Source of the DNA: an uncultured Candidatus Saccharibacteria bacterium
Lineage (GTDB): Bacteria; Patescibacteriota; WWE3; UBA101185; UBA10185
Length of the DNA stretch: 64,000 nt
NCBI GenBank assembly: GCA_964510435.1
Contig: CAZEBU010000001.1
Location: forward strand, 234,503 to 298,502
Direction of reading: 5' to 3'
Of this stretch, positions 6,216-23,089 are shown one piece after another. Numbering within the stretch: the stretch's first letter is position 1; each line of letters starts with the position of its first letter. Position numbers and translations under genes: made by a program. A model generated the notes under the pieces. It saw only the letters and a list, made by a program, of their open reading frames with translations, made no database searches and was not told the DNA's origin.

Positions 6216-8042
6216 CTATTCCTTTTCGAAATCGAAGAGGCGGCTTCTGATGGCTACATATGAGGGTGCTCTAAGATTGAAGACCGTTTTAAAGGTTTGT
6301 CCGTCTATTTTAACTGTACCGTTATCGGTCTCTAATTCTACCTGTGAGGTATAACCGCCGTTACTGACATCTACACTGATGCTTTTGACCTTTTTGTAGC
6401 TCTTACCGTATTTATTGGCTTTGTCACGCATTTTGTCTAGTGAGTAAGGGTCTCCGCCCCAGCAGCTGGTAGTCACCGGCGTGATACGATCCTTTTCGCT
6501 GCCGGAGCCTTTTGTCCAGACTACCCAGGCATTTACGATATCCGCCATTTCTTCTTCGGTGAGCCAAGGATGGGATCTACCGCAGTTGCTATTGTCATTG
6601 TAGCTTTTGGTATACCAGGCTTTTCTAAACCAAGGGCTGCCGCCTTCTTTTTCATAAGCATCCTCAGGCCAGCACGAAGAGCCACCGCATTTTGTGTCCC
6701 AACCAACGTTATTAATATAACCTCCGGTAGTGGAGGAATACCATCCATAACCGGAAGCATCGGTGCTGCCGTCGATGATCTTGTTTTTTGTATCTTTGAC
6801 TGCGTCCTTCCATCTACCCGGGGGATCATCGCTTTTACTCTTTAGGAATACCTGACAGTTTTGTGTTGTACAAATACAGAGACCTTTTTTGGCAAACCTG
6901 TAGGCATAAGATCTGCCAGCCACCGCCTGTGCTTTCAAGGCGTCTGAATCCCAGCTGCTAGGCATCTCGGCCAAACCATAGAGGTATTTCTGGTAGTCCA
7001 TCTCGCCGTAGCCTTCCACGCAGATCTTGCTAGGAAAATCATCCTTTTCTTTTACATCTTCCTCATAATAAAACTCAATAATGTCTTTATAACCTTTACC
7101 CTTTTCCGCCCTGCCTCTAGCTCCATACTGACTCATTCCTTTATAGTGCGTGTACGCTCCGTAACTAAAGGCGGCAAAAGCAGGGTCAAAAGGAGGATCC
7201 GGGGTCTTAGCTTCGGAGGGTTCATATTCTCCCACACTACCGCTTTCCGTACCGTATTTTTGGTTTAAAATAGCTTGTTGTTTAGAGGAGAGCTCGGCGA
7301 TTTCCTGCTCCAGGTCAAAGAGTTCCTCTTCGTAATCTTCCTCTTCCTCTTCCAAGTTACTGAACTCATTTTGTGCCGAAGCTTTTTTACTATCTACATC
7401 AGCTTTTAGAGATAACAAACTGTTTTGTGTACCTTCCAGCTCGGATATGATAGTTTCCGCTTCCAGCCTGTCTGTTTCAAAGGTGTTGATCTCTGAATTC
7501 AACAAGTAGATCCATTGTAAAGCGTCGTCAGTGAGGGATTTATTAAATATGTAAGAGAAAGATGAATACTGGAATCCGGTGAGATTAGTACCAAAGGGAT
7601 TGAAGGCAAAAAATATTTCCAGGTCGCTCTTAAATCTTTTTTTGGAATAATTTCTGATAACTTTGTTTCTAAAATCAATCTTTTCTGCCAGCTTACCGCG
7701 GCGATCACTGAGGTTTTCGTTGATGATGTTTAGCTCTTCGCTGATAAAGTTAATTTCGCTTTGCAGCTCGTCAATTTGTGCTTGTGTCACATTTAGTTCC
7801 GAAAGGTACTGGTTTATGGTGGCTTCAATGTTGTCCATTTTGCCTCTAATATCGCCTAGCTTATTTGAGGTGGACTCGTATTTTTCTTGTTTGTCTTCGA
7901 TCTTATTGGCGTAGCAGTCTGCTCTGTCATCTAGATCTTGGATCTCCGAGCATCCCCCAACAACCGGTTTGGGTACAAGAGCCAGCAGGAAAGCCAGAGA
8001 TACTATGAGGAGAGATGTTTTAAACAGGTTCCTTGCGGGCAT
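6216..8042 (-). CDS. Secreted coiled-coil protein with C-terminal SpoIID/LytB-like domain (peptidoglycan remodelling)
   Basis: N-terminal signal peptide and a long heptad-rich coiled-coil region. C-terminal AQAVAGRSYAYRFAKKGLCICTTQNCQVF matches the SpoIID family motif (AQAVAARTYA...CDTTxCQVY). Confidence 0.6.
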   Translation of the reverse strand: MPARNLFKTSLLIVSLAFLLALVPKPVVGGCSEIQDLDDRADCYANKIEDKQEKYESTSNKLGDIRGKMDNIEATINQYLSELNVTQAQIDELQSEINFISEELNIINENLSDRRGKLAEKIDFRNKVIRNYSKKRFKSDLEIFFAFNPFGTNLTGFQYSSFSYIFNKSLTDDALQWIYLLNSEINTFETDRLEAETIISELEGTQNSLLSLKADVDSKKASAQNEFSNLEEEEEDYEEELFDLEQEIAELSSKQQAILNQKYGTESGSVGEYEPSEAKTPDPPFDPAFAAFSYGAYTHYKGMSQYGARGRAEKGKGYKDIIEFYYEEDVKEKDDFPSKICVEGYGEMDYQKYLYGLAEMPSSWDSDALKAQAVAGRSYAYRFAKKGLCICTTQNCQVFLKSKSDDPPGRWKDAVKDTKNKIIDGSTDASGYGWYSSTTGGYINNVGWDTKCGGSSCWPEDAYEKEGGSPWFRKAWYTKSYNDNSNCGRSHPWLTEEEMADIVNAWVVWTKGSGSEKDRITPVTTSCWGGDPYSLDKMRDKANKYGKSYKKVKSISVDVSNGGYTSQVELETDNGTVKIDGQTFKTVFNLRAPSYVAIRSRLFDFEKE

Positions 8043-8155
8043 GCTACCAAATTATATGGCTTTAGAGGTTATGACTCAAGTTTGTTACATAAGTTATTAT
8101 GCCCGTGCTAATAGCTTACTTGACTATTTTTCTCTATATTTGATAATTAAGTGGT

Positions 8156-8518
8156 ATGGTTAAAATCTTGCAAACCCTAGGATACTTTGTCTTTTCGCTG
8201 TTTGCATCCGCAGGGGTTGTTTACGCTGATGCGGAATCGGTACAGGAATTTATTGACAGCGTCGCTTTGGATGAGGCTGAGATAGCTGTAGGTATATATA
8301 ACTTCTTATTTCCTATTGGTTTGGCCGTAGGTTTTTTTGCCATAATCATGGCAGGCTACTCATACCTAACTAGCCAAGGACAACCGGATAAGGTAAAAGA
8401 AGCTAGCGAAAAATTAACCAGCGCTATACTTGGTATTATTTTTATAGCTCTATCTCTGGTCATCTTGCGGATCATTGTAGTTTCGTTATTGGGAGGCTCA
8501 TTACCCTTAGCTACGTAG
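8156..8518 (+). CDS. Small secreted two-helix hairpin protein, VirB2/TrbC-pilin-like (paralog 1 of 4)
   Basis: Signal peptide (..AGVVYA|DAES). Two hydrophobic helices separated by a short polar loop (AGYSYLTSQGQPDK...). Conserved motifs are shared with the next three ORFs. Confidence 0.5.
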   Translation: MVKILQTLGYFVFSLFASAGVVYADAESVQEFIDSVALDEAEIAVGIYNFLFPIGLAVGFFAIIMAGYSYLTSQGQPDKVKEASEKLTSAILGIIFIALSLVILRIIVVSLLGGSLPLAT

Positions 8519-8642
8519 TCATTACCAACCCATAACTTGAGATCCTACCGTTGTGTTGTCACTGGTGATTCTAAAGGTTATAATTAATTCATTACTTGGT
8601 CCGATTTACTTTTATTTTAAAGGAGGTGTAAGTTAACGAACT

Positions 8643-8996
8643 ATGTTATTACAAAAAGTGTATGCAGCAGGAACAGCTGTGAGTACTACCATTACCGACC
8701 CATTAACAAACTACACCAGCTTAGGTCAAGTCTTTAACTTTTTGCTCAATCTGTTTATTGGTATCGGTTGGGCCTTGGTTTTTGTCATGTTAGCTTTGGG
8801 TTTTGTACAGTACGTAATGTCACGAGGAGAGAAAACCGCTGTCGAGTCTGCCCAGAAATGGTTGACTTATGCCGTTATCGGTGGCGTTGGGTTGTTCTTT
8901 GTCTCTTTTGTGAGGAGGATAGTACCACAATTGTTAGGAGGTACTGCCGGTCCAGGAACTGGCCTTACAACAGGTGGAGACCTAACACCGTTCTAA
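8643..8996 (+). CDS. Small two-helix hairpin protein, VirB2/TrbC-pilin-like (paralog 2 of 4)
   Basis: RBS AAAGGAGG upstream. Core hairpin LGFVQYVMSRGEKTAVESAQKWLTYAVIGGVGLFFVSFVRRIVPQLLGG aligns with the other paralogs. Gly-rich C-terminal tail. Confidence 0.5.
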   Translation: MLLQKVYAAGTAVSTTITDPLTNYTSLGQVFNFLLNLFIGIGWALVFVMLALGFVQYVMSRGEKTAVESAQKWLTYAVIGGVGLFFVSFVRRIVPQLLGGTAGPGTGLTTGGDLTPF

Positions 8997-9049
8997 CGAG
9001 TATTGTTATTATTGTTACTGCAGTAATTACGAGATCTCAAAAAGGAAAA

Positions 9050-9077
9050 GCTCCAATGTTAACATTGGGGCTTTTTT
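9050..9077 (+). terminator. Rho-independent terminator after pilin-like paralog 2
   Basis: 9-bp stem GCTCCAATG/CATTGGGGC (one G-U pair) with a TTAA loop, followed by TTTTTTG. Confidence 0.55.
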
Positions 9078-9091
9078 GTTAAAATTATTTT

Positions 9092-9430
9092 ATGTTTGAT
9101 ACTCTACAAAGTATTTTTGGTTCGGTAGGCGCAGGTAGCCCAGGTAACAGCAAATATATTAGTTTTGCAGCTATGGCGGGTGCCGTCTTGAACTTTATGA
9201 TGGCCGTTGCCTTTGCGATCAGTATTTTAGCTGTGGCATACTCCGCTATCATGTACATTGTGAGCGGTGGAAATCCTGATAATACCAAGAAAGCTTGGAA
9301 TGCGTTTATATATGGAGTAGTTGGCGCTGCAGTTTCAGTAGGATTGTTTGCCTTGACCCGCATTGTTTTAAGTGGGTTTGGGGTTGAAGGTGTGCGAACT
9401 GATATTAATCAAATTATCCCAGGCTTTTAG
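9092..9430 (+). CDS. Small two-helix hairpin protein, VirB2/TrbC-pilin-like (paralog 3 of 4)
   Basis: Core VAYSAIMYIVSGGNPDNTKKAWNAFIYGVVGAAVSVGLFALTRIVLSGFG aligns with paralogs 1, 2 and 4. Confidence 0.5.
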   Translation: MFDTLQSIFGSVGAGSPGNSKYISFAAMAGAVLNFMMAVAFAISILAVAYSAIMYIVSGGNPDNTKKAWNAFIYGVVGAAVSVGLFALTRIVLSGFGVEGVRTDINQIIPGF

Positions 9431-9436
9431 AACAGG

Positions 9437-9907
9437 ATGAACACATTAAAGAAAAGTCTAATAATAGTATTTTTAATAACCGCTTCTTTGTTTGTGCTTA
9501 GTGATACAAATAAAGTGTACGCGCAATTTGGCGACTGCGATTTAGCTGGGGATACACAATTAGGTGTAACTGTTCCTAAACCCTCACAATTATTGTGCCC
9601 CTTCTACAGAATTATAAATTTCTTTTTCATTATTGTGGGCATTGTTTTTGCAGTTATGCTAGGTGTGGGAGCGATCAAGTTAGCCACCTCTTTAGGTGAT
9701 CCAAAGGCATTTCAGGGGGCCAACAGGACCTGGTTATACGCTGTTATTGGCGCGTTTGTGGCTGTGGGAGCGTATGCTGTTTTGAGGATTGTAAATAACG
9801 CGTTTGGTTTAGGTTTGTCTTTGGGAACAGGCCCCAGCAGCATTTATGACAGCATACAGACACAATGGGAAAATTTAATACGTAACACCTTCTTAATTTT
9901 TGAGTAA
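9437..9907 (+). CDS. Small secreted two-helix hairpin protein, VirB2/TrbC-pilin-like (paralog 4 of 4), with extra N- and C-terminal extensions
   Basis: Signal peptide (..TNKVYA|QFG). Core VGAIKLATSLGDPKAFQGANRTWLYAVIGAFVAVGAYAVLRIVNNAFG aligns with paralogs 1–3. Confidence 0.5.
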   Translation: MNTLKKSLIIVFLITASLFVLSDTNKVYAQFGDCDLAGDTQLGVTVPKPSQLLCPFYRIINFFFIIVGIVFAVMLGVGAIKLATSLGDPKAFQGANRTWLYAVIGAFVAVGAYAVLRIVNNAFGLGLSLGTGPSSIYDSIQTQWENLIRNTFLIFE

Positions 9908-9913
9908 ACCATC

Positions 9914-10552
9914 TTAATATGCGTAGTGGGGGGGTATAAAATACTCATCCTCTAAAATATTCCCCCAAAGTTGCATAAATTCATCCGCACTCATGGGTGT
10001 AAAATATGACTCTTGGTAAACAACCTGTGTGGTATCGAAGACGTTAAACCAAACCCCCTCATCCAGGTAAATATGGGCTTTTTCGTAAAAACCGTTTTTA
10101 TCGTATTTAATTATGTCAGGCTCGTCCAACTCCAAACGCTCTTTATAGGAGGAGAAAGGCAAAGCTTCATCATAGGATATAGGAATTCTCACAAACGCAA
10201 CTTTACCGTCTTTATCGACACCAATCTGGTGTTCCCTGACACCTGTCTTCGCGTCTCTGTGTACATAGAGAACCAACCCTTTGAAAGATCTTGAGGTAAG
10301 GAGTTTGCCGAATTTATCTTTGATATTCTCGTAGCTTGTTTTTCCTGGAGTAATACCATTCCAGGTATTTACTCTGTTTTCGGGTTTTACGTTATAGACA
10401 TCTGGAGAACCCAATTCCGGTTTTTCTGATTTAGGAATGCGTATACGTCCAAGGAATAAAATTATAATTCCTGCAACTAACCCAAAAACAAATATGAGAA
10501 AAAGTTTGTTTTCGAAAATAGTTTTTATAATAACCTTTAATTTATTTAGCAT
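9914..10552 (-). CDS. Bitopic membrane protein (N-terminal TM anchor + ~180-aa extracytoplasmic domain); speculative VirB8-like position
   Basis: A single N-terminal TM helix, LFLIFVFGLVAGIIILFLG. Sits 6 nt downstream of the 1075-aa gene on the same strand, so the two are probably co-transcribed. Confidence 0.45.
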   Translation of the reverse strand: MLNKLKVIIKTIFENKLFLIFVFGLVAGIIILFLGRIRIPKSEKPELGSPDVYNVKPENRVNTWNGITPGKTSYENIKDKFGKLLTSRSFKGLVLYVHRDAKTGVREHQIGVDKDGKVAFVRIPISYDEALPFSSYKERLELDEPDIIKYDKNGFYEKAHIYLDEGVWFNVFDTTQVVYQESYFTPMSADEFMQLWGNILEDEYFIPPHYAY

Positions 10553-10558
10553 ATTATT

Positions 10559-13500
10559 TTATGGTCCAAACAAAAAACTACTTGTAGCAAAATTATAATG
10601 TCCTTCGAAACAGGTAGGACAATATGTACCGTAGCTGTGCCAAAATTCGCTGGGAGAGACATTGGTGCATTGACCGCTTAGCACATGGTATTGTCCCACA
10701 GTCTCAGCAAAATCTTCGCTATTATTGTTACTTGTACTGCATTGGTTACCGGTGGGTCCTACGTATGTAGGTAATGTATAGCCGCTGTCATTTGACTGAG
10801 CTGTACCTAGGGCTCCCATGCCGTAGCGCATAGCATAGACATGTCCTGTTTCGTGGGCGAATAACCAATTGAAAAGAAGCTGGTTAGCGGAGTTGTATGT
10901 CCAACAACGGCCATCACCAAACTCTATTCTATTTAAACCTCTAGCCCAACCGCACCCAGCACCTCGATTCCAAGCAATTTCTATAGGACCGGCAGCGCAG
11001 AGTCTATCTACATAGCGACCACGAGTACCTGCTAGGCCGCCAGCGGCAGATTGTATGATGGAAAGTGCTTGTGGACCCTCTCCGGAATCCCACCCCTCAA
11101 GAAATTCAAAACAACCAACTGTACTTATTACTTCGCATTCTTCAGGAGGGCAGACTATGGGAGGGCCTGCAGCAGGACCACCTCCAAAATCCTTTCCAGC
11201 AGCCATTCTTGTGGGATCAACCGGAGTAATGGCTGTGAGAATGAAGATGAAAACTACCATCACTGGTATAACAACTACTAGACCAAAACAACCCATGACA
11301 TATCCCGCCAGTTTGAAAACTGCTTGAGCACTTTTTTCTACATATTTTTCTATAGCATCGAATTTAGCCTCTTTAATGGCTTTAAGCGTTGCAGCTGCAA
11401 AATCCATTGCTTTTTTGATCACATATTGCACTACCTTCTCGATGAGGGGGATCAACACGGTACCTATTCCTGATGTTCCGGCGGCGACAGCCGCACCGAC
11501 AACTTTGGCTAAAACTTTTGATATTGCCTTAGTTGCCATTTTCGACAACCATTTTGAAGCCACATTTCTTGCGTAAGCCACGGGCGCCAGGAATTTAAAA
11601 TATTTAAAGATCTTGCTTTGTATAATGTTGGCTCTCTGAGAAAGTTTATCTAAGATTCCGGCTTTACTTTGTAGGATACTGATAAAGTCTGAGTTTATCT
11701 CAATTTTATCCAAGCCTTTGAACAAGGCTTTGAGTTTCTCAATATTTTCCGGACTGTTTATTAAATACCCATTTGCATCGAATTTCAAACCCAGTTGCTT
11801 GTTGTGCTTCATAAGCCATTTTCTGAGGCTCTTTGCTCTTTGCTTCACGTCCTCTAATTCCTTAAAACCGTCATAATAAGATACTTTGTAAGCGACGCCG
11901 GGTCCGGTTTTGCCGTTAAGTAATTGTATAAAGCTCTTACCAGTCAAATGCAGTGCGTCTGATTTATCCAATGTGGTTCTGTCATTAAGACCAGTTCCAA
12001 GCTGAATATTAAAATTACCTGTAAATTTAAATTTACCCACGCCTTCTATATTGTGGGTTTGCCTATTAGCAAAAAGCCTAGTGCCCATTATTCCGTTGAA
12101 GAATTTTGATGATTTTACAGCGTCGTCACCCGGCACGCCGTCTTCTACGGAGTATCTCGAGTCGTATAATAGTCCAAAATAATGTCTTCTTTTTAGTTTT
12201 TCTTTTAAAAAACGCGCAGGTGTAAAACCATTTAATCGTTCCCTGAAAAGGACCCAAAATTGATCAGCTGCTATGTGCAATAGGCCGTCATTTTCAAGTC
12301 TATCTATGAGATCGTAAAAATCCTCCCTTTTATAGGTTCTTAGAGCCTCCTCCATAACATTGGCTAAGTTCTTAGTACCAACTATTTTGTCGTTACTGAA
12401 TATTACTTTGGTCAATGGGCTATTTAAAAGATGGGTTTCGACAAACTTTCTGTTCATTCGATCGAGGCTTCCCTTGACTTGGCCTTCCCTAGCGTATTTC
12501 TTTTGTAATAAACCAATTTTTCCACTGAGATTTCTAGCTTGGGTCTCACCGGTAATTTTTTCGTCTTTTAGCTTATCTAGATCTTTGAGGAGATTTCTTA
12601 ACGGTTTTGTATCTTTAACAAACTCATCAAGAGTATTACCACCTAATTCTATAAACCAATTATCCATTTCCTCTAAAGCCACATTTATCTTTGTGATATT
12701 CTCAACAACCCTTCCCAAGCGCTTATTTGCATCATCTATTGTGGCCGCACCATAAGTGTAAGCACTCAACTCTTTTGTCAAACCTGCTAATCCATAACCA
12801 ATGCCCTCACCATAAAGTGTTTCACCTGCCTTCTTTTGCGCATCCGTCAGTACACGGTCACTGGCGAATTTATAGGTGTTTATATCGCTACTCGAGATGC
12901 CCTGCAAAGCATTAGCCATTCTAATTGCCCTGGCTCGGTGTAGATAGGATTTGACAATTTCTACCTCTTTAGGATCACTTATATCCCCGCTATCAATCAG
13001 CTGAGTTAGTTCTGCCGAACTAGCTAGCGCCGCGGCGTTAATGAGCTTTCTGTAAGCCTTGTTTCTTGTACCCGAGGCTCGGACGGCTTGCATGTAGCTT
13101 AGGAAGGCACCGCCCGATTTTGCAAAAAGATCGGTTTCTGTTTCCGTAAATTCCTTAGTTTCCTTACCACCTACCTGTTCCTGGTAAAGAAGCCCAACTG
13201 ACACTTTAGCTTTAGGAATATCTAAACCCTTGAGTTGGAATGGCCTAAATTTAGTAGTCGCGCTTTCATCAAGGTGCTCGCCATATACCTTGCTTACGAT
13301 ACCTGGTATTGGTTTAATTTCACCTCCGCTCAGGAGAGGTTTCCACATAGCCGATTGCTCCATATAGGAATCAAAGTCTTTCCAGTTAGCAAAATCCTTT
13401 ACAAATCTATCTACGGTGTCTTTGGCCATTTCACCTGGGTTTCTCAGCCACTTGACAGGATTTATGTCTAATTCAAGCTGTACACCGGCAACATCTTCTT

Positions 13501-13786
13501 CATCACCAAGTTCTAGCGCACGCATAGGGTCGTAAGACACGCCTTTTGGTTTTGTTTGGGCAATTAAAGTTCTTTCCACATCGTCAATAAAGAACTTTTT
13601 AGCTTGATTACCAATGGTTAATTTATCCAGCTCTTTTCTAACCGCAAACAAGTACTTTTCGATCAAAGCATCCGTATTAAATTCGACCATATCAGGGGGT
13701 CTACTATAAGGAGGTCTTTTTCTAGGAATAGGCTTGCCAGGATAGTATCCGCCAAGAAGTTCGTAAAAAGGGTTTGAGTCAGGCAT
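10559..13786 (-). CDS. Large membrane protein: ~730-aa N-terminal domain without signal peptide, two central hydrophobic helices, C-terminal Cys/Gly-rich domain with HExxH zincin-like motif
   Basis: AHETGHVYAM motif in the C-terminal domain. Strongly hydrophobic segment GLVVVIPVMVVFIFILTAITPV. No Walker A motif was found. Confidence 0.5.
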   Translation of the reverse strand: MPDSNPFYELLGGYYPGKPIPRKRPPYSRPPDMVEFNTDALIEKYLFAVRKELDKLTIGNQAKKFFIDDVERTLIAQTKPKGVSYDPMRALELGDEEDVAGVQLELDINPVKWLRNPGEMAKDTVDRFVKDFANWKDFDSYMEQSAMWKPLLSGGEIKPIPGIVSKVYGEHLDESATTKFRPFQLKGLDIPKAKVSVGLLYQEQVGGKETKEFTETETDLFAKSGGAFLSYMQAVRASGTRNKAYRKLINAAALASSAELTQLIDSGDISDPKEVEIVKSYLHRARAIRMANALQGISSSDINTYKFASDRVLTDAQKKAGETLYGEGIGYGLAGLTKELSAYTYGAATIDDANKRLGRVVENITKINVALEEMDNWFIELGGNTLDEFVKDTKPLRNLLKDLDKLKDEKITGETQARNLSGKIGLLQKKYAREGQVKGSLDRMNRKFVETHLLNSPLTKVIFSNDKIVGTKNLANVMEEALRTYKREDFYDLIDRLENDGLLHIAADQFWVLFRERLNGFTPARFLKEKLKRRHYFGLLYDSRYSVEDGVPGDDAVKSSKFFNGIMGTRLFANRQTHNIEGVGKFKFTGNFNIQLGTGLNDRTTLDKSDALHLTGKSFIQLLNGKTGPGVAYKVSYYDGFKELEDVKQRAKSLRKWLMKHNKQLGLKFDANGYLINSPENIEKLKALFKGLDKIEINSDFISILQSKAGILDKLSQRANIIQSKIFKYFKFLAPVAYARNVASKWLSKMATKAISKVLAKVVGAAVAAGTSGIGTVLIPLIEKVVQYVIKKAMDFAAATLKAIKEAKFDAIEKYVEKSAQAVFKLAGYVMGCFGLVVVIPVMVVFIFILTAITPVDPTRMAAGKDFGGGPAAGPPIVCPPEECEVISTVGCFEFLEGWDSGEGPQALSIIQSAAGGLAGTRGRYVDRLCAAGPIEIAWNRGAGCGWARGLNRIEFGDGRCWTYNSANQLLFNWLFAHETGHVYAMRYGMGALGTAQSNDSGYTLPTYVGPTGNQCSTSNNNSEDFAETVGQYHVLSGQCTNVSPSEFWHSYGTYCPTCFEGHYNFATSSFLFGP

Positions 13787-13813: not shown

Positions 13814-15247
13814 ATGAGAAAGGAAACCCTGCTTGATAGAAAAATAGTTCTTAAATTAGCTACATTCTTATTTGTCGGCTTTTTGTTCCTTGGATTATCA
13901 CCAAAAGCGCATGCAGGGGTGTGCGATGAACAACCCCCAAAATTTAGATTTGATATCATGATTGCCTGCAAACTTAAGGAGATTAATCCCCTGGTCTCTA
14001 TTCAGAGAACAATCAACGACGCGGCAACTACCATACTCACTAATGTTTTAGCCTCCATAGTTTTTAATAGTAATCCTGATGATCTGGGGACGTGCGGCGT
14101 TGCTATGTTGGCGGATCGAATAGACACTCTTCCCGGAGTGAATATGACGGACATTACTGATCAAAATGGAGTTTTGTTTAGTGCTGCGGAAGTGCAGGAT
14201 GCTCGTGATGCAGCCCCGGCCATCGGCTGTGATTTTAACGACACCCTTTTCGGGTCAAGGGCTAACGGCAGTTTGATGGGAGTAACTAAATTTGCTTTTA
14301 ACACGGTAACAACAGAGCAGCCTCCGATTAATTTGGCTTATTATTTCAAGCACAATTTGCAGAAGGTACCCATTATCAGTGATACAGCTTATGCACAAAC
14401 AGTGAGCTATAACGCCTGGGGATTGGAATTTGCTATCCAGATTTGGGAAAAATCACGCAACATTGCCTACGCCATGATGTCGGTTATCATGCTTGTCATA
14501 GGCATCCTTATTATTACCAGGAAAAAAATAAACCCCCAGACTGTAGTTTCTGTACAAACGGCTCTACCCAGGATAGTGATCAGCCTTATTCTTATTACTT
14601 TTAGCTATCCTATCGGGGCCATCTTAATATCCATAGGTTACGCCTTGGTAGTCGTTGTTATCAGGTTGTTTTTTGGAACTATTATAGATGATGTATCCCA
14701 GTTGGCGGATATGGATGTGCTGGTAATGATGGTTACTATTATGGCAGCTACTATTGGACCTCAAGGAGTAATAGGAGTAGTGACGGCAATGCTAATGGCT
14801 GTTTTGACCATCATAGCTTTGCTAGTGGCTATTATTAAGATTATAATTATTAATCTAAAGGTTCTTATTGCTATAATTTTTGCACCTATTCAGTTTGCTA
14901 TCGCAGCCATCCCGGGGCAGGAGGACCTGGTGCAGGATTGGTTTAAGAAGATGCTCGCCAAAGTGTTAGCTATTCCTGCCATATTCTTTATGATTGCCCT
15001 AGCTTGGTATATGCTCATTGTGCCCTTTACCAATCCAGATTTCTTTACCAGCATACTCGTACAATCCACTGACCCGATAAGTATTGGATATACCCTGATC
15101 AGAGGAGCAAGGGCGGTTGGTTCCAGAATGATCACTATTATGTTGCTTCCCCTTATGACCATTATGACTATGTTTTTTGCTTTGAAAGCGGATAAAGTAG
15201 TGGAAGAGTTTATTATGGGCGGTAGAGGTAAACCTAAAAGAAGATAG
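13814..15247 (+). CDS. Polytopic membrane protein with signal peptide and N-terminal extracytoplasmic domain, VirB6/TrbL-like architecture
   Basis: Signal peptide followed by a ~200-aa soluble region. At least five long hydrophobic helices in the C-terminal half. Divergent from the 1075-aa gene with only a 27-nt gap. Confidence 0.45.
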   Translation: MRKETLLDRKIVLKLATFLFVGFLFLGLSPKAHAGVCDEQPPKFRFDIMIACKLKEINPLVSIQRTINDAATTILTNVLASIVFNSNPDDLGTCGVAMLADRIDTLPGVNMTDITDQNGVLFSAAEVQDARDAAPAIGCDFNDTLFGSRANGSLMGVTKFAFNTVTTEQPPINLAYYFKHNLQKVPIISDTAYAQTVSYNAWGLEFAIQIWEKSRNIAYAMMSVIMLVIGILIITRKKINPQTVVSVQTALPRIVISLILITFSYPIGAILISIGYALVVVVIRLFFGTIIDDVSQLADMDVLVMMVTIMAATIGPQGVIGVVTAMLMAVLTIIALLVAIIKIIIINLKVLIAIIFAPIQFAIAAIPGQEDLVQDWFKKMLAKVLAIPAIFFMIALAWYMLIVPFTNPDFFTSILVQSTDPISIGYTLIRGARAVGSRMITIMLLPLMTIMTMFFALKADKVVEEFIMGGRGKPKRR

Positions 15248-15259
15248 TTAGATAATTAA

Positions 15260-18200
15260 ATGATATGCGCCGTTATGAAATCCAGCAGATTTACCAAGAT
15301 ATTTACGATCCTCCTAGTTTTATTAGGAGTTTCCCTATTTAACAACGTATTTGCACAAGAAGAATGTGACGAAGACGGTTTTATTGTCAATAGCTATTGT
15401 CCTTGTCCCCCTGATCCTGGTATAGCTTCAGTTTGCGGATTTGTGAGTGACGCGAATATTACCCAGGATCTTCCCGATACGGGTATAGAAAGAGCAATCT
15501 GGTCTACCAGAAAACCTGTACCCGGTGTTACCGTGACCATTTATGAAAATAACCCTGATATACCAACAGGTAAGCCGTATGGGAAGCTAGACAGAAAATT
15601 TGGTGCCTGCTACACCACAGAAGAAGAAGGAAAATATCACTGTTTAATGCGGAGACTTAATCCCGGCAACATGGCCTATGTCATTTTTAGCTGTGACGGA
15701 AAAATAGCGGATATGAAGATTATACCCACTGTGAAAAGTTACATAGGACTAGATTCAGATATAGATTGTAGCGGCGAATATAGTTACAATGCCCTAGATG
15801 ATGAGCTAGACTTTGCTGAGAGAAGTAATTTTTTGGGCTGTTTATCAACATCTGATGAAGAGGAAAATGTTAACGCCGGTTTTGAGGAACCGGAGTACAT
15901 CTACAAAAGTGCTGATATTGGTGAGAAGGGTGGAGATATTAGATTCAACCCTTTCACTGGAGTTTTACCCATTGTTGGTGTGCACAACGGTGCCTTTTGG
16001 GAAAAGGATTGTTTGTTCGAATTCACAGGACCGTTAGATTTAAACAGAGAATACGCTCTATTCGGAGGTTTTTTTGGTTTAGCAAACTATGGAAGTGTGT
16101 CAGAAAAGTGTAATTTGGATCCGGACAGAGATGGTGATGGAGCTATAGACGGCGATGATGGAAATCCCCTCAATGATCCTGATGAACTCACAGTGCCGTT
16201 CAGATATGATATTCCAACATTGCAGTTAGAGCACGAGCAGCAGAGGATTTGGGAGACCAGAACTTCCATGCAACGGGAAATACAGGATCCCAGAGCATTT
16301 CAACAGTACAACCATCTCATGTTTGGTGAATGTGTAGGTAGGGCGTTTCTCAGGTATTTTGGCGATGATGATGAAGACCTGCCTATTTCCTGCAGTGAGC
16401 TGGCGGAGTGTAACGAAGCCTTAGGAGATCCTTTTAGGAATACACACACAGCATTGAGTTTAGGATCACGTCTTGAGTTACAAGTTACTTGGGAGGACAT
16501 CTTAGATGCAAATGAAAGGGATCCGGAGGACATAGTTTGCGAAGATGAAGAATTGGGAGAGATTATGATTTCTGAGGTGCAACCACCATTCCCTGATAAC
16601 CCGTGCGAACCGGGAAGCCCGGGGTGCCCATATAAGTTATCAAGAGATTACTATATGCCGCAGTTTTTTGTTGAGGTTGGTGGTGTAAAAAAACCTAAAA
16701 CAGCAGAAACAGCGAATGACGCATATGGAAGTATCCCTAGGAGTTTAGTATGGGAACCTATAAGTACAGAAGCGGAAACTCCCCATGAATCAGGGCACTA
16801 TGTGAATTATGAGGACAAATCTTCGCAGAGGACAAACTCAGGCAGGACAGCTATCAGATTAGCCTCGAAAAGTAATGCTGATCTCGGGGACGTTATGACT
16901 AACAGGTTCGTGAGTTACATAGACGCTGTAGATGAAACTTATGATTATAATTCGGAATCAACAATTTGGGATGCAGGTGGAGATGTTAAAAGCCTATGTA
17001 CCATTTCTAGTGTTAACGATTTGCTTATAATTCCCGACCTGGCTACAGAAACCACAACTTTGGTGAGCAACGAGTTTGTTGGAGATGAAACGGATCATAA
17101 AGAGGACGAAACGGCGGCCTCGTCAACCTATGGTACAAATTGGGGTATGGCAAGAGACGAAGCTATGTCAAACGATTATTTCTGGCGTGATGTGCTTGAT
17201 ACCTTACAAAGGTACTCAAGTGGTGGCGGTGTGCAGCTAGACTTGATGACCGCTTGGGCAATCGTAAGAAACATTGCCTCACGTGGAGCCGGTAATGTTT
17301 ATAAATCGTTCGCAGAAAGAATAGATAACTGGGCACAAGTAGGCTACCCTTCTTATATGAATACGGAATACTGCATTGCCGAAGATACCTTTGAAGCAGC
17401 CTTCCCAGCTTATGGTACAGGAGGTTATCCTGGCGGACACGCTTGCTATCCTTGGATAGATGTGCCCAGTGGGGAAAATTGTGACGCTTGGCCGGGACCT
17501 CCGGGTGAGTGGCCTCCTACTCCAGAGGTGAGTGCGCTAGGTTATAACGCTGGTTCATGGCCAGGTATAGAGGGAGAGCTAAGAACATGCAGAGCTTTAA
17601 ATTGTGAGATAAGAACAAAAACTCGAACTTGCGATGAGGAAATATGCAGGTGGGTTTGGAATTCACGCGCCGGCGTATTTGTTTGGGTGTGCAGTGGTTG
17701 CGGGGATAATAATGGAGATGGGAACGTGGACTCAAACATTGATGATTCTACGAGAGGCTGTAACGACGGTGAGCTTAGGGCCTGTTTAGTTGAGCAAAGA
17801 GATAACTGGGATGAACAGCCTCCAGATCCCCCTCCACTGGATCCCCCTGATTATGATGATGAAAATAGTAGTATACGCGCTTGTGATTTAGAAAAAGCCG
17901 GACCAATGCAAGAGCCGGGTGATATTTGGAAAGACCACTCTGCTAGGATAGTTCAGCAGCCTTTTTTCGGGCAATCTCAAGAAAATGTTGATACGGTGTC
18001 CTTGACCGCTAACTACACGGCACTTTCCCTAACCAGTAAGGTTGAAGAAAGAAGAGAAAGCCATAAGGTTAGTTTTGTAGATTATGCATCCACAAATGAT
18101 ATCAGCGGAGGGGGACCTGCACAGGCCATAGATCCTGATAGGCTTAGGCACAGGAACACCGCAGGCACAAATTCTCAAGGATTTGGTACCGGGGCGGCAG

Positions 18201-18892
18201 TAGATCTACTAAAAACCATTAGCCACCCCGAAAGGTTTGGTTCTCTGGTTGAGCCGTTGCCGGACTGGATTCCAAATTGTAATTTTTATGATCCTAATTC
18301 ATGGTGTTATGCTATTCAACCTCCTGGTCCCATCGATTTAGATAGTTTGGATGGAGGTGCATGTAATCCAAATACTACTCGGGGAGCATGTCCTTTGAAC
18401 GGTTATGTACCCGCTATTGCAGAGAGAATACTAGGTGCCGCCGGAGCTAATTCGGGGGTTGATGGCGCAGTTTTGCTGGCAGCCATATATGGAGAAGGTG
18501 GGTGGATTGGTCCTGGGGCAAGGCTTGATTGGATAGATGCCAACGTCAGAGCCTGGAGCGAACCCTGGTATGCGAGAATACCTGGATGTAACGACATGGT
18601 GCCCACAGCCCAGGGACCTTTTGGTATGATAACCCGTTGGTTTGAAGGTGCGGTAGCTAATGGAGGATACCACCCATCGAGAGTAAGTCCTACCAACGGA
18701 CAGGTTATAGTCAGTAAATGTAACTTTATAGACGCAGCTTATGCTGCGGCACAGATGCTTGGTGGAATAGGATGTAATGGTTTTAGTGCAGCTGATGTAA
18801 GACAGAGATTAGCGGTTTACAGAGGCGGTTCTCAAGCAAATCCGGCAGACGTACCCCAGTTTTTAGTAGACACCGCTATGAACTGCCGCTAA
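15260..18892 (+). CDS. Giant secreted Cys-rich protein with Asp-rich calcium-binding-like repeats (DxDxDGxxD) and a possible C-terminal lysozyme/lytic-transglycosylase-like domain
   Basis: Signal peptide (..NNVFA|QEE). Very many Cys residues. DPDRDGDGAIDGDDGNPLNDPDE resembles thrombospondin-type-3 Ca-binding repeats. The C-terminal region (AIYGEGGW...GPFGMITRWF) is weakly reminiscent of SLT-type motifs. Confidence 0.5.
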   Translation: MICAVMKSSRFTKIFTILLVLLGVSLFNNVFAQEECDEDGFIVNSYCPCPPDPGIASVCGFVSDANITQDLPDTGIERAIWSTRKPVPGVTVTIYENNPDIPTGKPYGKLDRKFGACYTTEEEGKYHCLMRRLNPGNMAYVIFSCDGKIADMKIIPTVKSYIGLDSDIDCSGEYSYNALDDELDFAERSNFLGCLSTSDEEENVNAGFEEPEYIYKSADIGEKGGDIRFNPFTGVLPIVGVHNGAFWEKDCLFEFTGPLDLNREYALFGGFFGLANYGSVSEKCNLDPDRDGDGAIDGDDGNPLNDPDELTVPFRYDIPTLQLEHEQQRIWETRTSMQREIQDPRAFQQYNHLMFGECVGRAFLRYFGDDDEDLPISCSELAECNEALGDPFRNTHTALSLGSRLELQVTWEDILDANERDPEDIVCEDEELGEIMISEVQPPFPDNPCEPGSPGCPYKLSRDYYMPQFFVEVGGVKKPKTAETANDAYGSIPRSLVWEPISTEAETPHESGHYVNYEDKSSQRTNSGRTAIRLASKSNADLGDVMTNRFVSYIDAVDETYDYNSESTIWDAGGDVKSLCTISSVNDLLIIPDLATETTTLVSNEFVGDETDHKEDETAASSTYGTNWGMARDEAMSNDYFWRDVLDTLQRYSSGGGVQLDLMTAWAIVRNIASRGAGNVYKSFAERIDNWAQVGYPSYMNTEYCIAEDTFEAAFPAYGTGGYPGGHACYPWIDVPSGENCDAWPGPPGEWPPTPEVSALGYNAGSWPGIEGELRTCRALNCEIRTKTRTCDEEICRWVWNSRAGVFVWVCSGCGDNNGDGNVDSNIDDSTRGCNDGELRACLVEQRDNWDEQPPDPPPLDPPDYDDENSSIRACDLEKAGPMQEPGDIWKDHSARIVQQPFFGQSQENVDTVSLTANYTALSLTSKVEERRESHKVSFVDYASTNDISGGGPAQAIDPDRLRHRNTAGTNSQGFGTGAAVDLLKTISHPERFGSLVEPLPDWIPNCNFYDPNSWCYAIQPPGPIDLDSLDGGACNPNTTRGACPLNGYVPAIAERILGAAGANSGVDGAVLLAAIYGEGGWIGPGARLDWIDANVRAWSEPWYARIPGCNDMVPTAQGPFGMITRWFEGAVANGGYHPSRVSPTNGQVIVSKCNFIDAAYAAAQMLGGIGCNGFSAADVRQRLAVYRGGSQANPADVPQFLVDTAMNCR

Positions 18893-18957: not shown

Positions 18958-19434
18958 GTGAGATATAATAACCCCATGCTGATACAGAAAAACCGCAAGG
19001 CTCTCTTTAACCACGAGATTCTCGAGAAATTTATGGCAGGAATTGAATTAAAGGGTTTTGAGGTCAAGGCAATAAAAGAAAATAAAGCCAGTTTTGAAGG
19101 TTCGTTTGTCAACATAGTGAAGGGCGAGGCCTTTGTACAAGGTATGCATATTGGCAAGTATTCGAAACAGAGCCAGGATTACTACGAACAAGAAGCACGC
19201 CGTCCTAGACGTTTGCTCTTAAATAAGCATGAGCTGAAAAAACTAAAAAAAGAAATTTCCGAAAAAGGTAAAACAGCGGTTCCATTGGCACTGTTATTAA
19301 AACGAGGCATGATCAAATTAGAGTTTGCGGTGGTTAAAGGTAGAAAAAAGCACCAGAAAAAACAATTACTGAAAAAGAAGCAGATAGAAATGGATCTAAA
19401 GAAAGAGATCAAACAGCAGTTTGAGTTGCCGTAA
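18958..19434 (+). CDS. smpB: SsrA-binding protein SmpB (true start possibly the second ATG at 18976)
   Basis: Sequence matches the SmpB family (NRKA...GIELKGFEVKAIK...LLLNKHELKKL). A basic C-terminal tail is present. Confidence 0.85.
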   Translation: MRYNNPMLIQKNRKALFNHEILEKFMAGIELKGFEVKAIKENKASFEGSFVNIVKGEAFVQGMHIGKYSKQSQDYYEQEARRPRRLLLNKHELKKLKKEISEKGKTAVPLALLLKRGMIKLEFAVVKGRKKHQKKQLLKKKQIEMDLKKEIKQQFELP

Positions 19435-19509
19435 TAGTATTTTAAGCATATTGAAAATTCGTACGAAGTGAGTTATAATACAGACCCATAGTGTTATGGG
19501 TGTAATTAC

Positions 19510-19902
19510 GGGGATGCGTAGGCATTGATTGGAAGAAGTAATTACGAGAGCAAGCCGAAGTGATAGATTTTCGTAAAAAACTATCAAAACATAAGTGCTG
19601 ATGAATACGCATATCAGCCAGCATACGCTTACGCTTAAGTGTATGTGTCAGAACCCTTTGGGTATATCCCAAATCGTTTTGAGGTCCTGTGCTCACTAGC
19701 CTGAGGGGAGTGCAAGGGCGTTATAAAATCAGGCACCGCAGCTTAAGCCTGACCAGTTTAGGTTGTTTGCGAAAGGAAGGTCTAGGGAAAGGTTAAGGGT
19801 TTGCGGTTGCCCGACTTTTACCGAATAAATTTCCGCTAAGCTTGTATTCTTTTGTATTTTATAGCTTTCAAGACGGGGGTTCGAATCCCCCCATCTCCAC
19901 CA
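19510..19902 (+). ncRNA. ssrA: tmRNA (ssrA), one-piece form
   Basis: 5' GGGGAUG pairs with the 3' acceptor strand CAUCUCC, with one G-U pair. The 3' end has the tRNA-like T-arm GGGGGTTCGAATCCCCC followed by A and CCA. It lies immediately downstream of smpB. An in-frame tag-like ORF ends at TAA 19636..19638 (…ADEYAYQPAYAYA*). The 5' boundary is approximate. Confidence 0.65.
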
Positions 19903-22063: not shown

Positions 22064-22150
22064 GGAGGGTTGGCAGAGTGGTAATGCAGCGGCTTGCTAA
22101 GCCGTGACCGTTAATACGGTCCGTGGGTTCGAATCCCGCACCCTCCGCCA
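22064..22150 (+). tRNA. tRNA-Ser (anticodon GCT), class II with long variable arm
   Basis: Acceptor GGAGGGT/ACCCTCC, anticodon loop CTTGCTAAG, T-arm GTGGGTTCGAATCCCGC, encoded CCA. Confidence 0.85.
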
Positions 22151-22201
22151 TGATCACAGCCAAGTGTGTTTTATTTACGAATAAGCTATACTTAACCTAA
22201 T

Positions 22202-22795
22202 ATGAAGGTAACCGACCTAACCGATTTAATAGGTGTGACAAACACAAAAAAGGATCAGCCGGTAGCGCCGGAAGAAGCGGAGTTTAGACGGGAAAACCTT
22301 GGATCTAAATCGATCTACTTATCTTGGGAAGCCAAACCTAGCGCTCCAACTGCCTCTATTGATCCCAGATTTAAAAAGACCTTCTTAGTCATTGGTGCTG
22401 TCGTGGGCTTGGTTCTTATGGTTATGGGAGAAGTGTTTTTGCTCCTGGTGATTGCCAGCTTGGTTTTTATTACCTACGTATTATCAAATAACCCTTTGGA
22501 AAGTTTTAAGTACGAATTAAGCAGTCACGGACTGAGTGTGCATGGGAATCATTACTATTGGGACGAAATGGAAAGGTTTTTCTTTACTAAGCATTTTGGT
22601 AGCGAAAATCTAGCTGTTGATCTAAAAGAAGGATTACCTGCCAGGCTTATTATTGCTTTTAACCACAACGATAAGGAAAAGATCACCGAAAGCATGAATA
22701 AGCATCTTCCTTATTTGGAGGAGGAGCCCTTGAATTTTATGGATAAAGCGTATACAGGTATTTTAGGCAAGTTTGATTTCCAAAAGAAAAAATAG
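22202..22795 (+). CDS. Hypothetical protein with a central TM hairpin
   Basis: 197 aa. Hydrophobic segment FLVIGAVVGLVLMVMGEVFLLLVIASLVFITYVL. Confidence 0.45.
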   Translation: MKVTDLTDLIGVTNTKKDQPVAPEEAEFRRENLGSKSIYLSWEAKPSAPTASIDPRFKKTFLVIGAVVGLVLMVMGEVFLLLVIASLVFITYVLSNNPLESFKYELSSHGLSVHGNHYYWDEMERFFFTKHFGSENLAVDLKEGLPARLIIAFNHNDKEKITESMNKHLPYLEEEPLNFMDKAYTGILGKFDFQKKK

Positions 22796-22814
22796 TAGTC
22801 TCCCCATATATAAT

Positions 22815-22890
22815 GCACCCGTAGTTCAGTGGATAGAACGCAGCGTTGCGGACGCTGAGGTCGGGGGTTCAAATCCCTCCGGGTGCGCCA
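22815..22890 (+). tRNA. tRNA-Arg (anticodon read as GCG)
   Basis: Cloverleaf GCACCCG-TA-GTTCAGTGGATAGAAC-G-CAGCG-TTGCGGA-CGCTG-AGGTC-GGGGGTTCAAATCCCTC-CGGGTGC-G-CCA. A GCG anticodon is unusual for bacteria; ACG is more common. Confidence 0.75.
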
Positions 22891-22912
22891 AAGTTGTTAC
22901 ACAGGCTTATTT

Positions 22913-22989
22913 GGGCCGTTAGCTCAGTCGGCTAGAGCGTCGCATTCGCATTGCGGAGGTCGGGGGTTCGATTCCCCCACGGTCCACCA
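22913..22989 (+). tRNA. tRNA-Ala (anticodon CGC)
   Basis: Acceptor GGGCCGT with the G3:U70 identity pair. Anticodon loop TTCGCAT, T-arm GGGGGTTCGATTCCCCC, encoded CCA. Confidence 0.8.
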
Positions 22990-22997
22990 AGAATTTT

Positions 22998-23089
22998 GGA
23001 GGGGTGCGAGAGTGGTTTAATCGGCTGGTCTCGAAAACCAAGCGCTTGCGAGAGCAGGCACGAGGGTTCGAATCCCTCCCCCTCCGCCA
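22998..23089 (+). tRNA. tRNA-Ser (anticodon CGA), class II
   Basis: Acceptor GGAGGGG/CCCCTCC, anticodon loop CTCGAAA, long variable arm, T-arm GAGGGTTCGAATCCCTC, encoded CCA. Confidence 0.8.

Follow-up and report, generated by a model that had tools for sequence, protein, structure and literature searches.

Tandem arrays of genes for VirB2-like pilins of type IV secretion systems (T4SSs) have been found in the Patescibacteria: 441 such arrays, defined as 2–11 pilin genes in tandem or split by one non-pilin gene and with a mean identity of 25%, were reported in 383 assemblies (Quinonero-Coronel et al. 2025, PMC12102498). In Southlakia epibionticum ML1, a series of predicted pilins encoded in the T4SS cluster SEML1_0006–0019 is essential (Wang et al. 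2023, PMC10633639; reviewed in PMC12857230), and PF18895 (T4SS_pilin) is reported to be a dominant domain among the protein clusters specific to freshwater (bioRxiv 10.1101/2025.04.23.650224). Here we describe an array of four small genes, p1–p4, in a 64-kb stretch of DNA (contig CAZEBU010000001.1, positions 234,503–298,502; hereafter the window), which is ordinary chromosomal DNA of a bacterium of the candidate division WWE3. With four adjacent pilin genes of low mutual identity in a Patescibacteria host, the array falls under the published definition; this type is already known in Patescibacteria and the window adds no new kind of system. We consider it probable (roughly three chances in four) that the genes represent old, specialised classes of the Patescibacteria VirB2-like T4SS pilin, which fold as hairpins and are assembled by a T4SS into a pilus or conduit. 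The four genes are:

8156–8518, plus strand: p1, open reading frame (ORF) of 120 amino acids (aa)
8643–8996, plus strand: p2, ORF of 117 aa
9092–9430, plus strand: p3, ORF of 112 aa
9437–9907, plus strand: p4, ORF of 156 aa

The published arrays used for comparison (S. epibionticum and Nanosynbacter lyticus TM7x) share with the window array the PF18895 family, the tandem arrangement, the identity of ~25–30%, the chromosomal location, a monoderm ultrasmall host and the lack of a relaxase context. In contrast to these arrays, whose hosts belong to the Saccharimonadia, the window array resides in WWE3 and lies outside the virB4 cluster, in a conserved locus of its own with a VirB6-like, a SpoIID-domain and giant proteins. 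Four orthologous classes in fixed order, as found here in WWE3, are not described in PMC12102498 or PMC10633639.

The ORFs are present on the plus strand exactly where the first-pass annotation had placed them, and the spacers between them are 124 (p1–p2), 95 (p2–p3) and 6 bp (p3–p4). Their proposed paralogy was assessed by Smith–Waterman alignment. The local scores of the six pairs ranged from 58 to 98, compared to a mean of ~31 (standard deviation ~5.5) for shuffled partners; the resulting z-values were 5.2–12.4 for all six pairs. Since this comparison is controlled by shuffling, hydrophobic composition does not account for the similarity, and the four proteins are clearly paralogous. In a four-way MAFFT alignment, the identity to p1 was 26–31%, and the invariant residues (N49, F50, S73, G75, I107 and V108) recovered the motifs that had been named beforehand, that is, N-F at the start of helix 1, the S-x-G turn and R-I-V after helix 2. 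Two long hydrophobic segments were found in each of the proteins, in agreement with the two-helix core that had been claimed for them.

A Pfam scan yielded PF18895 as the best or only family for all four proteins, which supports their identification as T4SS-type pilins. The scores were 34.2 (p1), 26.2 (p2), 23.4 (p3) and 26.5 bits (p4) at a gathering cut-off of 26.6 bits, and the E-values of p2–p4 were between 6e-5 and 8e-6 (6.3e-5 for p3); many database homologues carried a PF18895 annotation beforehand. An AlphaFold2 model of p2, built with 63 homologues, is a helical hairpin (helices 27–59 and 64–97) with a predicted local distance difference test score (pLDDT) of 78 and of about 90 in the core. 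The core of ~70 residues, with two hydrophobic helices and a short polar turn, is of the PF18895 type. Holins, which had been considered as possible relatives, are not the best homologues: the proteins gave no PHROGs match at E ≤ 0.1 and no match to a holin or phage family.

The TrbC, VirB2 and TraA pilins of Gram-negative T4SSs (PF04956; 8exh, 8cue, 8s6h, 8cw4 and 5LER) are likewise small, with two hydrophobic helices and a polar loop, and further points of likeness are the predicted signal peptides of p1 and p4, a putative association with VirB6 and VirB4 homologues and a sequence link through the database protein P0345. Pilins of this type polymerise into helical filaments outside the cell, which in known cases bind phospholipid. 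They differ from the window array in that p2 and p3 are without a signal peptide, the window host is monoderm, and there is no direct similarity by hidden Markov model (HMM) or hhalign. When all four paralogues were used in an exhaustive HMM search, 32,997 cluster representatives were retrieved at E ≤ 1e-3, and the profile of the four reached P0345 with an E-value of 4e-34. This protein passes both PF18895 (158.8 bits) and PF04956 (43 bits, cut-off 27.9), and p1–p4 themselves gave no PF04956 match in the Pfam scan at E ≤ 0.1. Sequence comparison thus provides a transitive link to TrbC/VirB2 via P0345; the remote homology anticipated by the first-pass annotation holds in this form, but not in direct searches or in hhalign comparison with VirB2. 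P0341, P0345, P0353 and most of the top profile matches, all from outside the window, are what we call polypilins: single proteins of 200–900 aa, in which one signal peptide is followed by 2–8 complete tandem pilin domains. No mention of polypilins was found in the Patescibacteria T4SS paper (PMC12102498).

Two further systems in hosts without an outer membrane were compared. The archaeal Ced/Ted DNA-import pili likewise have a VirB2-like hairpin subunit, and the top Foldseek match of the p2 model in the PDB was CedA1 in the Aeropyrum conjugation pilus (8dfu). The E-value of 1.2 was not significant, the template modelling score was 0.43 normalised to the query and 0.57 normalised to the target, and the sequences showed no similarity; no PDB entry matched the model at E ≤ 0.001. 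The Mycoplasma proteins Mbov_0395 and MMCAP2_0565 (NF045849), from an integrative and conjugative element, are likewise small, two-helix and pilin-like, and belong to a monoderm T4SS. In NCBIfam, p1, p3 and p4 matched NF045849 weakly at 12–18 bits, far below the cut-off of 40 bits, and thus are not members.

The array is conserved across WWE3. Of 19 WWE3 genome loci, 17 showed the fixed order p1-p2-p3-p4 and the same neighbourhood, as did three metagenome loci, and the best match of each paralogue in every relative was the gene at the same position. Identities to the window orthologue were 42–63% for the p1 core, 48–70% for p2, 23–48% for p3 and 27–45% for p4, which makes p2 the most conserved paralogue; the leucyl-tRNA synthetases of these genomes are only 47–69% identical. 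The copy number varies slightly, with three copies of p2 in one relative (L018) and one extra copy in another (L006). Because position-specific orthologues occur in the same order across WWE3 genomes, the duplications are old and the copies, to judge from their sequences, specialised. The first-pass annotation had seen tandem amplification and divergence of a structural subunit; the paralogous tandem copies were borne out, but the amplification is not a recent one.

Each class has features of its own. As had been stated, p1 and p4 carry a clear N-terminal hydrophobic segment of the signal peptide type; the signal peptides were read by a heuristic. By this heuristic, the Sec-type signal peptide of p1 ends in VVYA before DAES, with predicted cleavage after VYA24, and that of p4 ends in NKVYA before QFGD. 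The hydrophobic segments of p1 span residues 8–24, 43–71 and 85–120, and the protein is built of a signal peptide, a short N-terminal tail and the two-helix core, with its C-terminus immediately behind helix 2. The p1 orthologue of many WWE3 relatives is much longer than this short form (360–620 aa) and consists of a signal peptide, a highly variable Cys-rich domain of 100–500 aa and a C-terminal PF18895 domain; by its sequence, the long p1 could be a display or adhesin pilin. Such long forms are located, for instance, at L010 8563–9966, L015 5172–6872, L019 8149–9960, L021 8097–9959 and L006 8885–9967 (L-numbers denote related loci). No signal peptide segment was seen in the hydropathy profiles of p2 and p3, and neither ORF can be extended upstream, because in-frame stops occur 3–4 codons before each ATG. 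Instead, p2 begins with the leader MLLQKVYA (8643–8666) and ends with a Phe (8991–8993). A leader of the type L-[ILV]-[EQ]-K-V-[YF]-A, ending at residue 6–11, was present in 74 of 87 p2 homologues, and the C-terminal Phe was kept in 62 of the 87. The two could mark a processing site or a joining of the ends. The VYA at the end of the p2 leader likewise closes the predicted signal peptides of p1 and p4. The N-terminus of p3 is MFDTL, and its orthologues begin with MFDxL. In p4 a conserved loop with Cys...Cys-P-F precedes helix 1 and a C-terminal extension of ~35 aa follows the core; the p4 orthologues have the signal peptide, the loop (Cys...Cys-P-[FL]-x-R) and an extension of ~35 residues as well. 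These fixed, class-specific features, together with the orthologues, argue for distinct roles of the four proteins and against interchangeable antigenic variants.

In a public collection the calls for p2 (P0002, 105 aa) and p3 (P0005, 80 aa) begin at an internal GTG and TTG, respectively. These starts remove the conserved N-termini, and P0005 additionally misses part of helix 1. The ATGs at 8643 and 9092 are favoured, because the N-termini that they yield are conserved among orthologues.

The array contains three putative expression signals:

8556–8584, plus strand: promoter-like site TTGTCA-17-TATAAT upstream of p2 (11 of 12 positions in a consensus scan; a consensus match, not functional evidence)
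8621–8630, plus strand: strong Shine-Dalgarno sequence AAAGGAGGTG upstream of p2 (by inspection of the sequence)
9044–9077, plus strand: hairpin with an adjoining U-run in the p2–p3 spacer, predicted intrinsic terminator or attenuator (by folding against shuffles)

The terminator that the first-pass annotation had noted after the second paralogue was confirmed as a 15-bp hairpin with a U-run and a folding free energy of −18.6 kcal/mol (z −4.9; none of 200 shuffled sequences was as stable); a simple pattern scan had missed it on the plus strand. A hairpin with z ≤ −2.5 was found in 16 of 19 p2–p3 spacers (the window included; relatives L004–L026). Its position is conserved, the stem sequences are unrelated, and a U-run often lies next to it. 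The proposal of at least two transcription units is supported by this hairpin and by its retention in relatives. Upstream of p1 and p3 (positions 8120–8156 and 9059–9092) no recognisable Shine-Dalgarno sequence was seen, and a −10-like hexamer ends 3–8 nt before the ATG (GATAAT ending at 8147 for p1, AATTAT ending at 9088 for p3); the p1 and p3 transcripts may be leaderless. The conservation of p2, its promoter-like site and translation signals and the conserved hairpin behind it suggest p2 as the probable major subunit, with p3 and p4 made at a lower level. The claim of major and minor subunits, already made from the first reading, gains support from the same observations, with the stoichiometry deduced. 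In chaperone-usher operons the gene of the major subunit (papA, fimA) is likewise followed by a terminator, which would lower the expression of the minor subunits downstream. The analogy concerns regulation only, as the proteins and their assembly pathway are unrelated to those of the window array.

The genes around the array, listed below, are housekeeping and envelope genes, and no phage genes were found in the window.

6216–8042, minus strand: secreted coiled-coil and SpoIID-domain protein (PF08486, E 2.6e-15; TIGR02669)
9914–10552, minus strand: bitopic protein of 212 aa with one N-terminal transmembrane segment, convergent with p4; function unassigned
10559–13786, minus strand: giant membrane protein of 1075 aa, transmembrane region ~762–859, HETGH at 978
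13814–15247, plus strand: polytopic membrane protein of 477 aa, structural homologue of VirB6 and conserved neighbour of the pilin array
15260–18892, plus strand: secreted Cys-rich protein of 1210 aa with 39 Cys, HESGH at 509

In relatives the conserved order starts with a class I aminoacyl-tRNA synthetase and continues with L25, a zinc-ribbon protein, a protein of ~600 aa, a bacterial PH-domain protein, the SpoIID-domain protein (minus strand), p1-p2-p3-p4 (plus), a small bitopic protein (minus), a giant membrane protein of 1040–1320 aa (minus), a polytopic protein of 445–490 aa (plus), often a secreted Cys-rich protein of ~1000–1280 aa, and then SmpB. The closest loci among GTDB species representatives are in metagenome-assembled genomes of the candidate division WWE3, and the homologues are labelled WWE3 or Patescibacteria. 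The housekeeping genes of the window include the synthetase, L25, SmpB beside the transfer-messenger RNA (tmRNA), five tRNAs, DnaG and RpoD. SmpB lies directly upstream of the tmRNA (tag ADEYAYQPAYAYA; 18958–19902), and a cluster of four tRNAs (22064–23089), also ordinary housekeeping, follows a few kb past the tmRNA.

The 477-aa protein, 4 kb downstream of the array, is a polytopic membrane protein with a VirB6 fold, an assignment that is based on structural modelling. It matched no Pfam family even at E 10, and none of 57 homologues matched TrbL/VirB6 in a Pfam scan, with one homologue pre-annotated as PF19590. TrwI was the only PDB sequence reached by the profile of the family (E 1.3). In some of the well-represented Patescibacteria classes, homologues of VirB6 were noted to be rare or lacking, and extreme divergence has been suspected (PMC12102498). 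On the strength of its modelled fold, the 477-aa protein is a candidate for the diverged VirB6 of WWE3.

The other neighbours are less readily assigned. The gene of the SpoIID-domain protein adjoins p1 in 16 related loci, always in divergent orientation, and the protein may have a wall-opening, VirB1-like role. The 212-aa protein gave BLASTP matches in L019, L021 and L025, and relatives possess an ORF of about the same length; no family match and no sequence relatives in the PDB were found. The 1075-aa protein consists of a long N-terminal part, the transmembrane region and a variable Cys-containing C-terminal domain, and has orthologues in 17 related loci; no Pfam match or PDB sequence relatives were detected. 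HExxH occurs in about half of these orthologues, the C-terminal HETGH domain being replaced in the rest, and a Walker-A-like sequence (ALHLTGKS at 611) is not conserved. The 1210-aa protein, also without a Pfam match, is 41–49% identical to orthologues in L010, L013 and L014, with weaker similarity elsewhere, and its gene lies in relatives at the same locus, on either strand, or on the opposite side of the array.

In WWE3 relatives a VirB4-like ATPase is encoded elsewhere in the chromosome. In one of them, L022, the gene of an 806-aa DUF87/TraG-D_C ATPase directly adjoins a p2-like pilin gene; homologues of this ATPase are 60–79% identical across WWE3 and occur on the same contigs as syntenic pilin arrays. 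One of these contigs (CAYSWS010000007.1) has the ATPase at 6.4–8.8 kb, followed by dnaA (13.3 kb), the synthetase (22.9 kb) and p1 (30.9 kb); on a 229-kb Joint Genome Institute (JGI) contig, 28 kb separate the ATPase from p2. In these two relatives virB4 is thus 22–28 kb upstream of the pilin array, near dnaA. By synteny, virB4 in the genome of the window would lie ~14–20 kb to the left of base 1 of the window. The WWE3 ATPase (DUF8128, DUF87 and TraG-D_C, ~805 aa) is encoded between DnaK and dnaA, at L022 3860–7081, L027 5396–11555 and L029 8983–15170, and its neighbours are three small genes and two genes of unassigned function (~420 and ~510 aa). The three small genes, upstream of virB4 in the relatives, were considered as pilin genes and rejected as not pilin-like.

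The following scheme would account for these observations. The four proteins would insert in the cytoplasmic membrane such that both termini face outward and the short polar S-x-G-(D/E)-P-x-K loop lies on the inner side. For this p1 and p4 would use a cleavable Sec signal peptide, and p2 and p3 would translocate their short polar N-terminal tail. An orientation with the N-terminus outside is suggested by the signal peptides of p1 and p4 and by the Cys-rich N-terminal domains of the p1 orthologues, which are necessarily extracytoplasmic. A chromosomal T4SS of the monoderm type, with VirB4 and the VirB6-like protein, would then extract and polymerise the subunits, and the SpoIID-domain protein could open the wall locally. 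In the resulting pilus or conduit, which an epibiotic cell would use on its host, p2 would be the abundant major subunit and p3 and p4 minor subunits reached by read-through; p1 would be a display subunit with an exposed N-terminus, which in relatives bears the large variable Cys-rich domains. Membrane topology, filament formation, stoichiometry and T4SS dependence are parts of this scheme that we infer.

A number of observations weigh against assembly into a T4SS pilus or conduit. Three of the four paralogues (p2, p3 and p4) score just under the PF18895 cut-off, a profile search of the PDB with 63 pilins returned designed proteins and noise only, and hhalign gave a probability of 0.4% against VirB2 of A. 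tumefaciens (VirB2 sequence verified against 8cue). The signal peptide that canonical VirB2, TraA and TrbC have is absent from p2 and p3. No VirB4, VirD4 or other ATPase was found in the 64-kb window, where every ORF of at least 400 aa was searched for VirB4 and VirD4 and turned out to be a housekeeping or envelope protein or to be without a conserved Walker A, and the position of VirB4 in this genome is deduced from synteny only. The major and minor roles are assigned from conservation and a predicted terminator, and we know of no filament ever seen for the PF18895 family.

A more elaborate version of the pilus, which we offer tentatively as one that may well prove wrong, takes the WWE3 array as a fixed four-part machine instead of a collection of variants, composed of a processed or cyclised p2 that lacks a signal peptide, a host-recognition display subunit p1, and scarce minor subunits p3 and p4. 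The leader and C-terminal Phe of p2 would then mark a new processing step, possibly an end-joining like that in cyclic TrbC, VirB2 and TrhA; p1 would present on the filament hypervariable Cys-rich domains (up to ~500 aa) that recognise the host, and the conserved attenuator hairpin would keep p3 and p4 scarce. The array would be encoded with a highly diverged VirB6, at a locus apart from virB4, and the polypilins, in which as many as eight units are fused, would represent precursors or relatives that form channels.

In principle, proteins of the same family could function without forming a pilus, as a membrane-embedded channel or platform of the envelope or as the lining of a stalk, together with the VirB6-like and giant neighbours and possibly independent of VirB4. 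The array is indeed linked not to virB4 but to the genes of the VirB6-like protein and of two giant proteins, and many PF18895 members are polypilins of 2–8 fused units, which resemble polytopic membrane proteins. Moreover, monoderm T4SSs are generally without pili (PMC12102498). We regard this possibility as unlikely. The signal peptides and the large extracellular Cys-rich domains of the p1 orthologues fit a surface-exposed polymer, and the transitive link leads to TrbC/VirB2, which are filament subunits. The layout of a conserved subunit gene, a terminator and genes for minor subunits is that typical of pilus operons, as in pap and fim.

Far less probable is a recently amplified, fast-diverging cassette of interchangeable major pilins, which would serve antigenic or host-range variation. 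Such a role has been suggested for Patescibacteria arrays (PMC12102498), and the array shares with those of VirB2 in Bartonella and Anaplasma the presence of several diverged tandem copies. The low identity between the copies (26–31%) and the slight variation in copy number (L018 and L006) would fit as well. However, the copies in Bartonella and Anaplasma have been proposed to be alternative variants that serve immune evasion, whereas those in the window are fixed orthologous classes. Recent amplification for antigenic variation was rejected on account of the position-specific orthologues, which occur in the same order in genomes as divergent as the leucyl-tRNA synthetases indicate. In addition, fixed features set the four classes apart (presence or absence of a signal peptide, Cys loop, C-terminal extension and leader motif), and p2 is strongly conserved. 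Finally, the view that p1–p4 are unrelated small membrane proteins (holins, bacteriocin-immunity proteins or transporter fragments) alike by hydrophobic composition, to which weak sub-threshold Pfam matches to DctQ, DUF2975 and NrsF might point, is largely refuted by the shuffle-controlled similarity (z 5–12), the conserved polar loop and R-I-V motifs, PF18895 as the top family for all four, the lack of PHROGs matches, the housekeeping chromosomal context without phage genes and the conserved synteny with the VirB6-like gene.

Modestly beyond the published papers go the four-class organisation in WWE3, the hairpin after p2, the p2 leader and C-terminal Phe, the fusions of p1 to variable Cys-rich domains and the structural VirB6 homologue apart from virB4. 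A large part of uncultured bacterial diversity belongs to the Patescibacteria, which live attached to host cells, and no T4SS other than theirs, with its pilin array, is known to be essential to its carrier. For this system the comparison of WWE3 genomes provides several handles: it points to the paralogue that is likely the major subunit, it offers the variable surface domains of p1 as a candidate determinant of host range, and it yields a candidate VirB6 homologue that has diverged past recognition by family models, as was suspected in PMC12102498.

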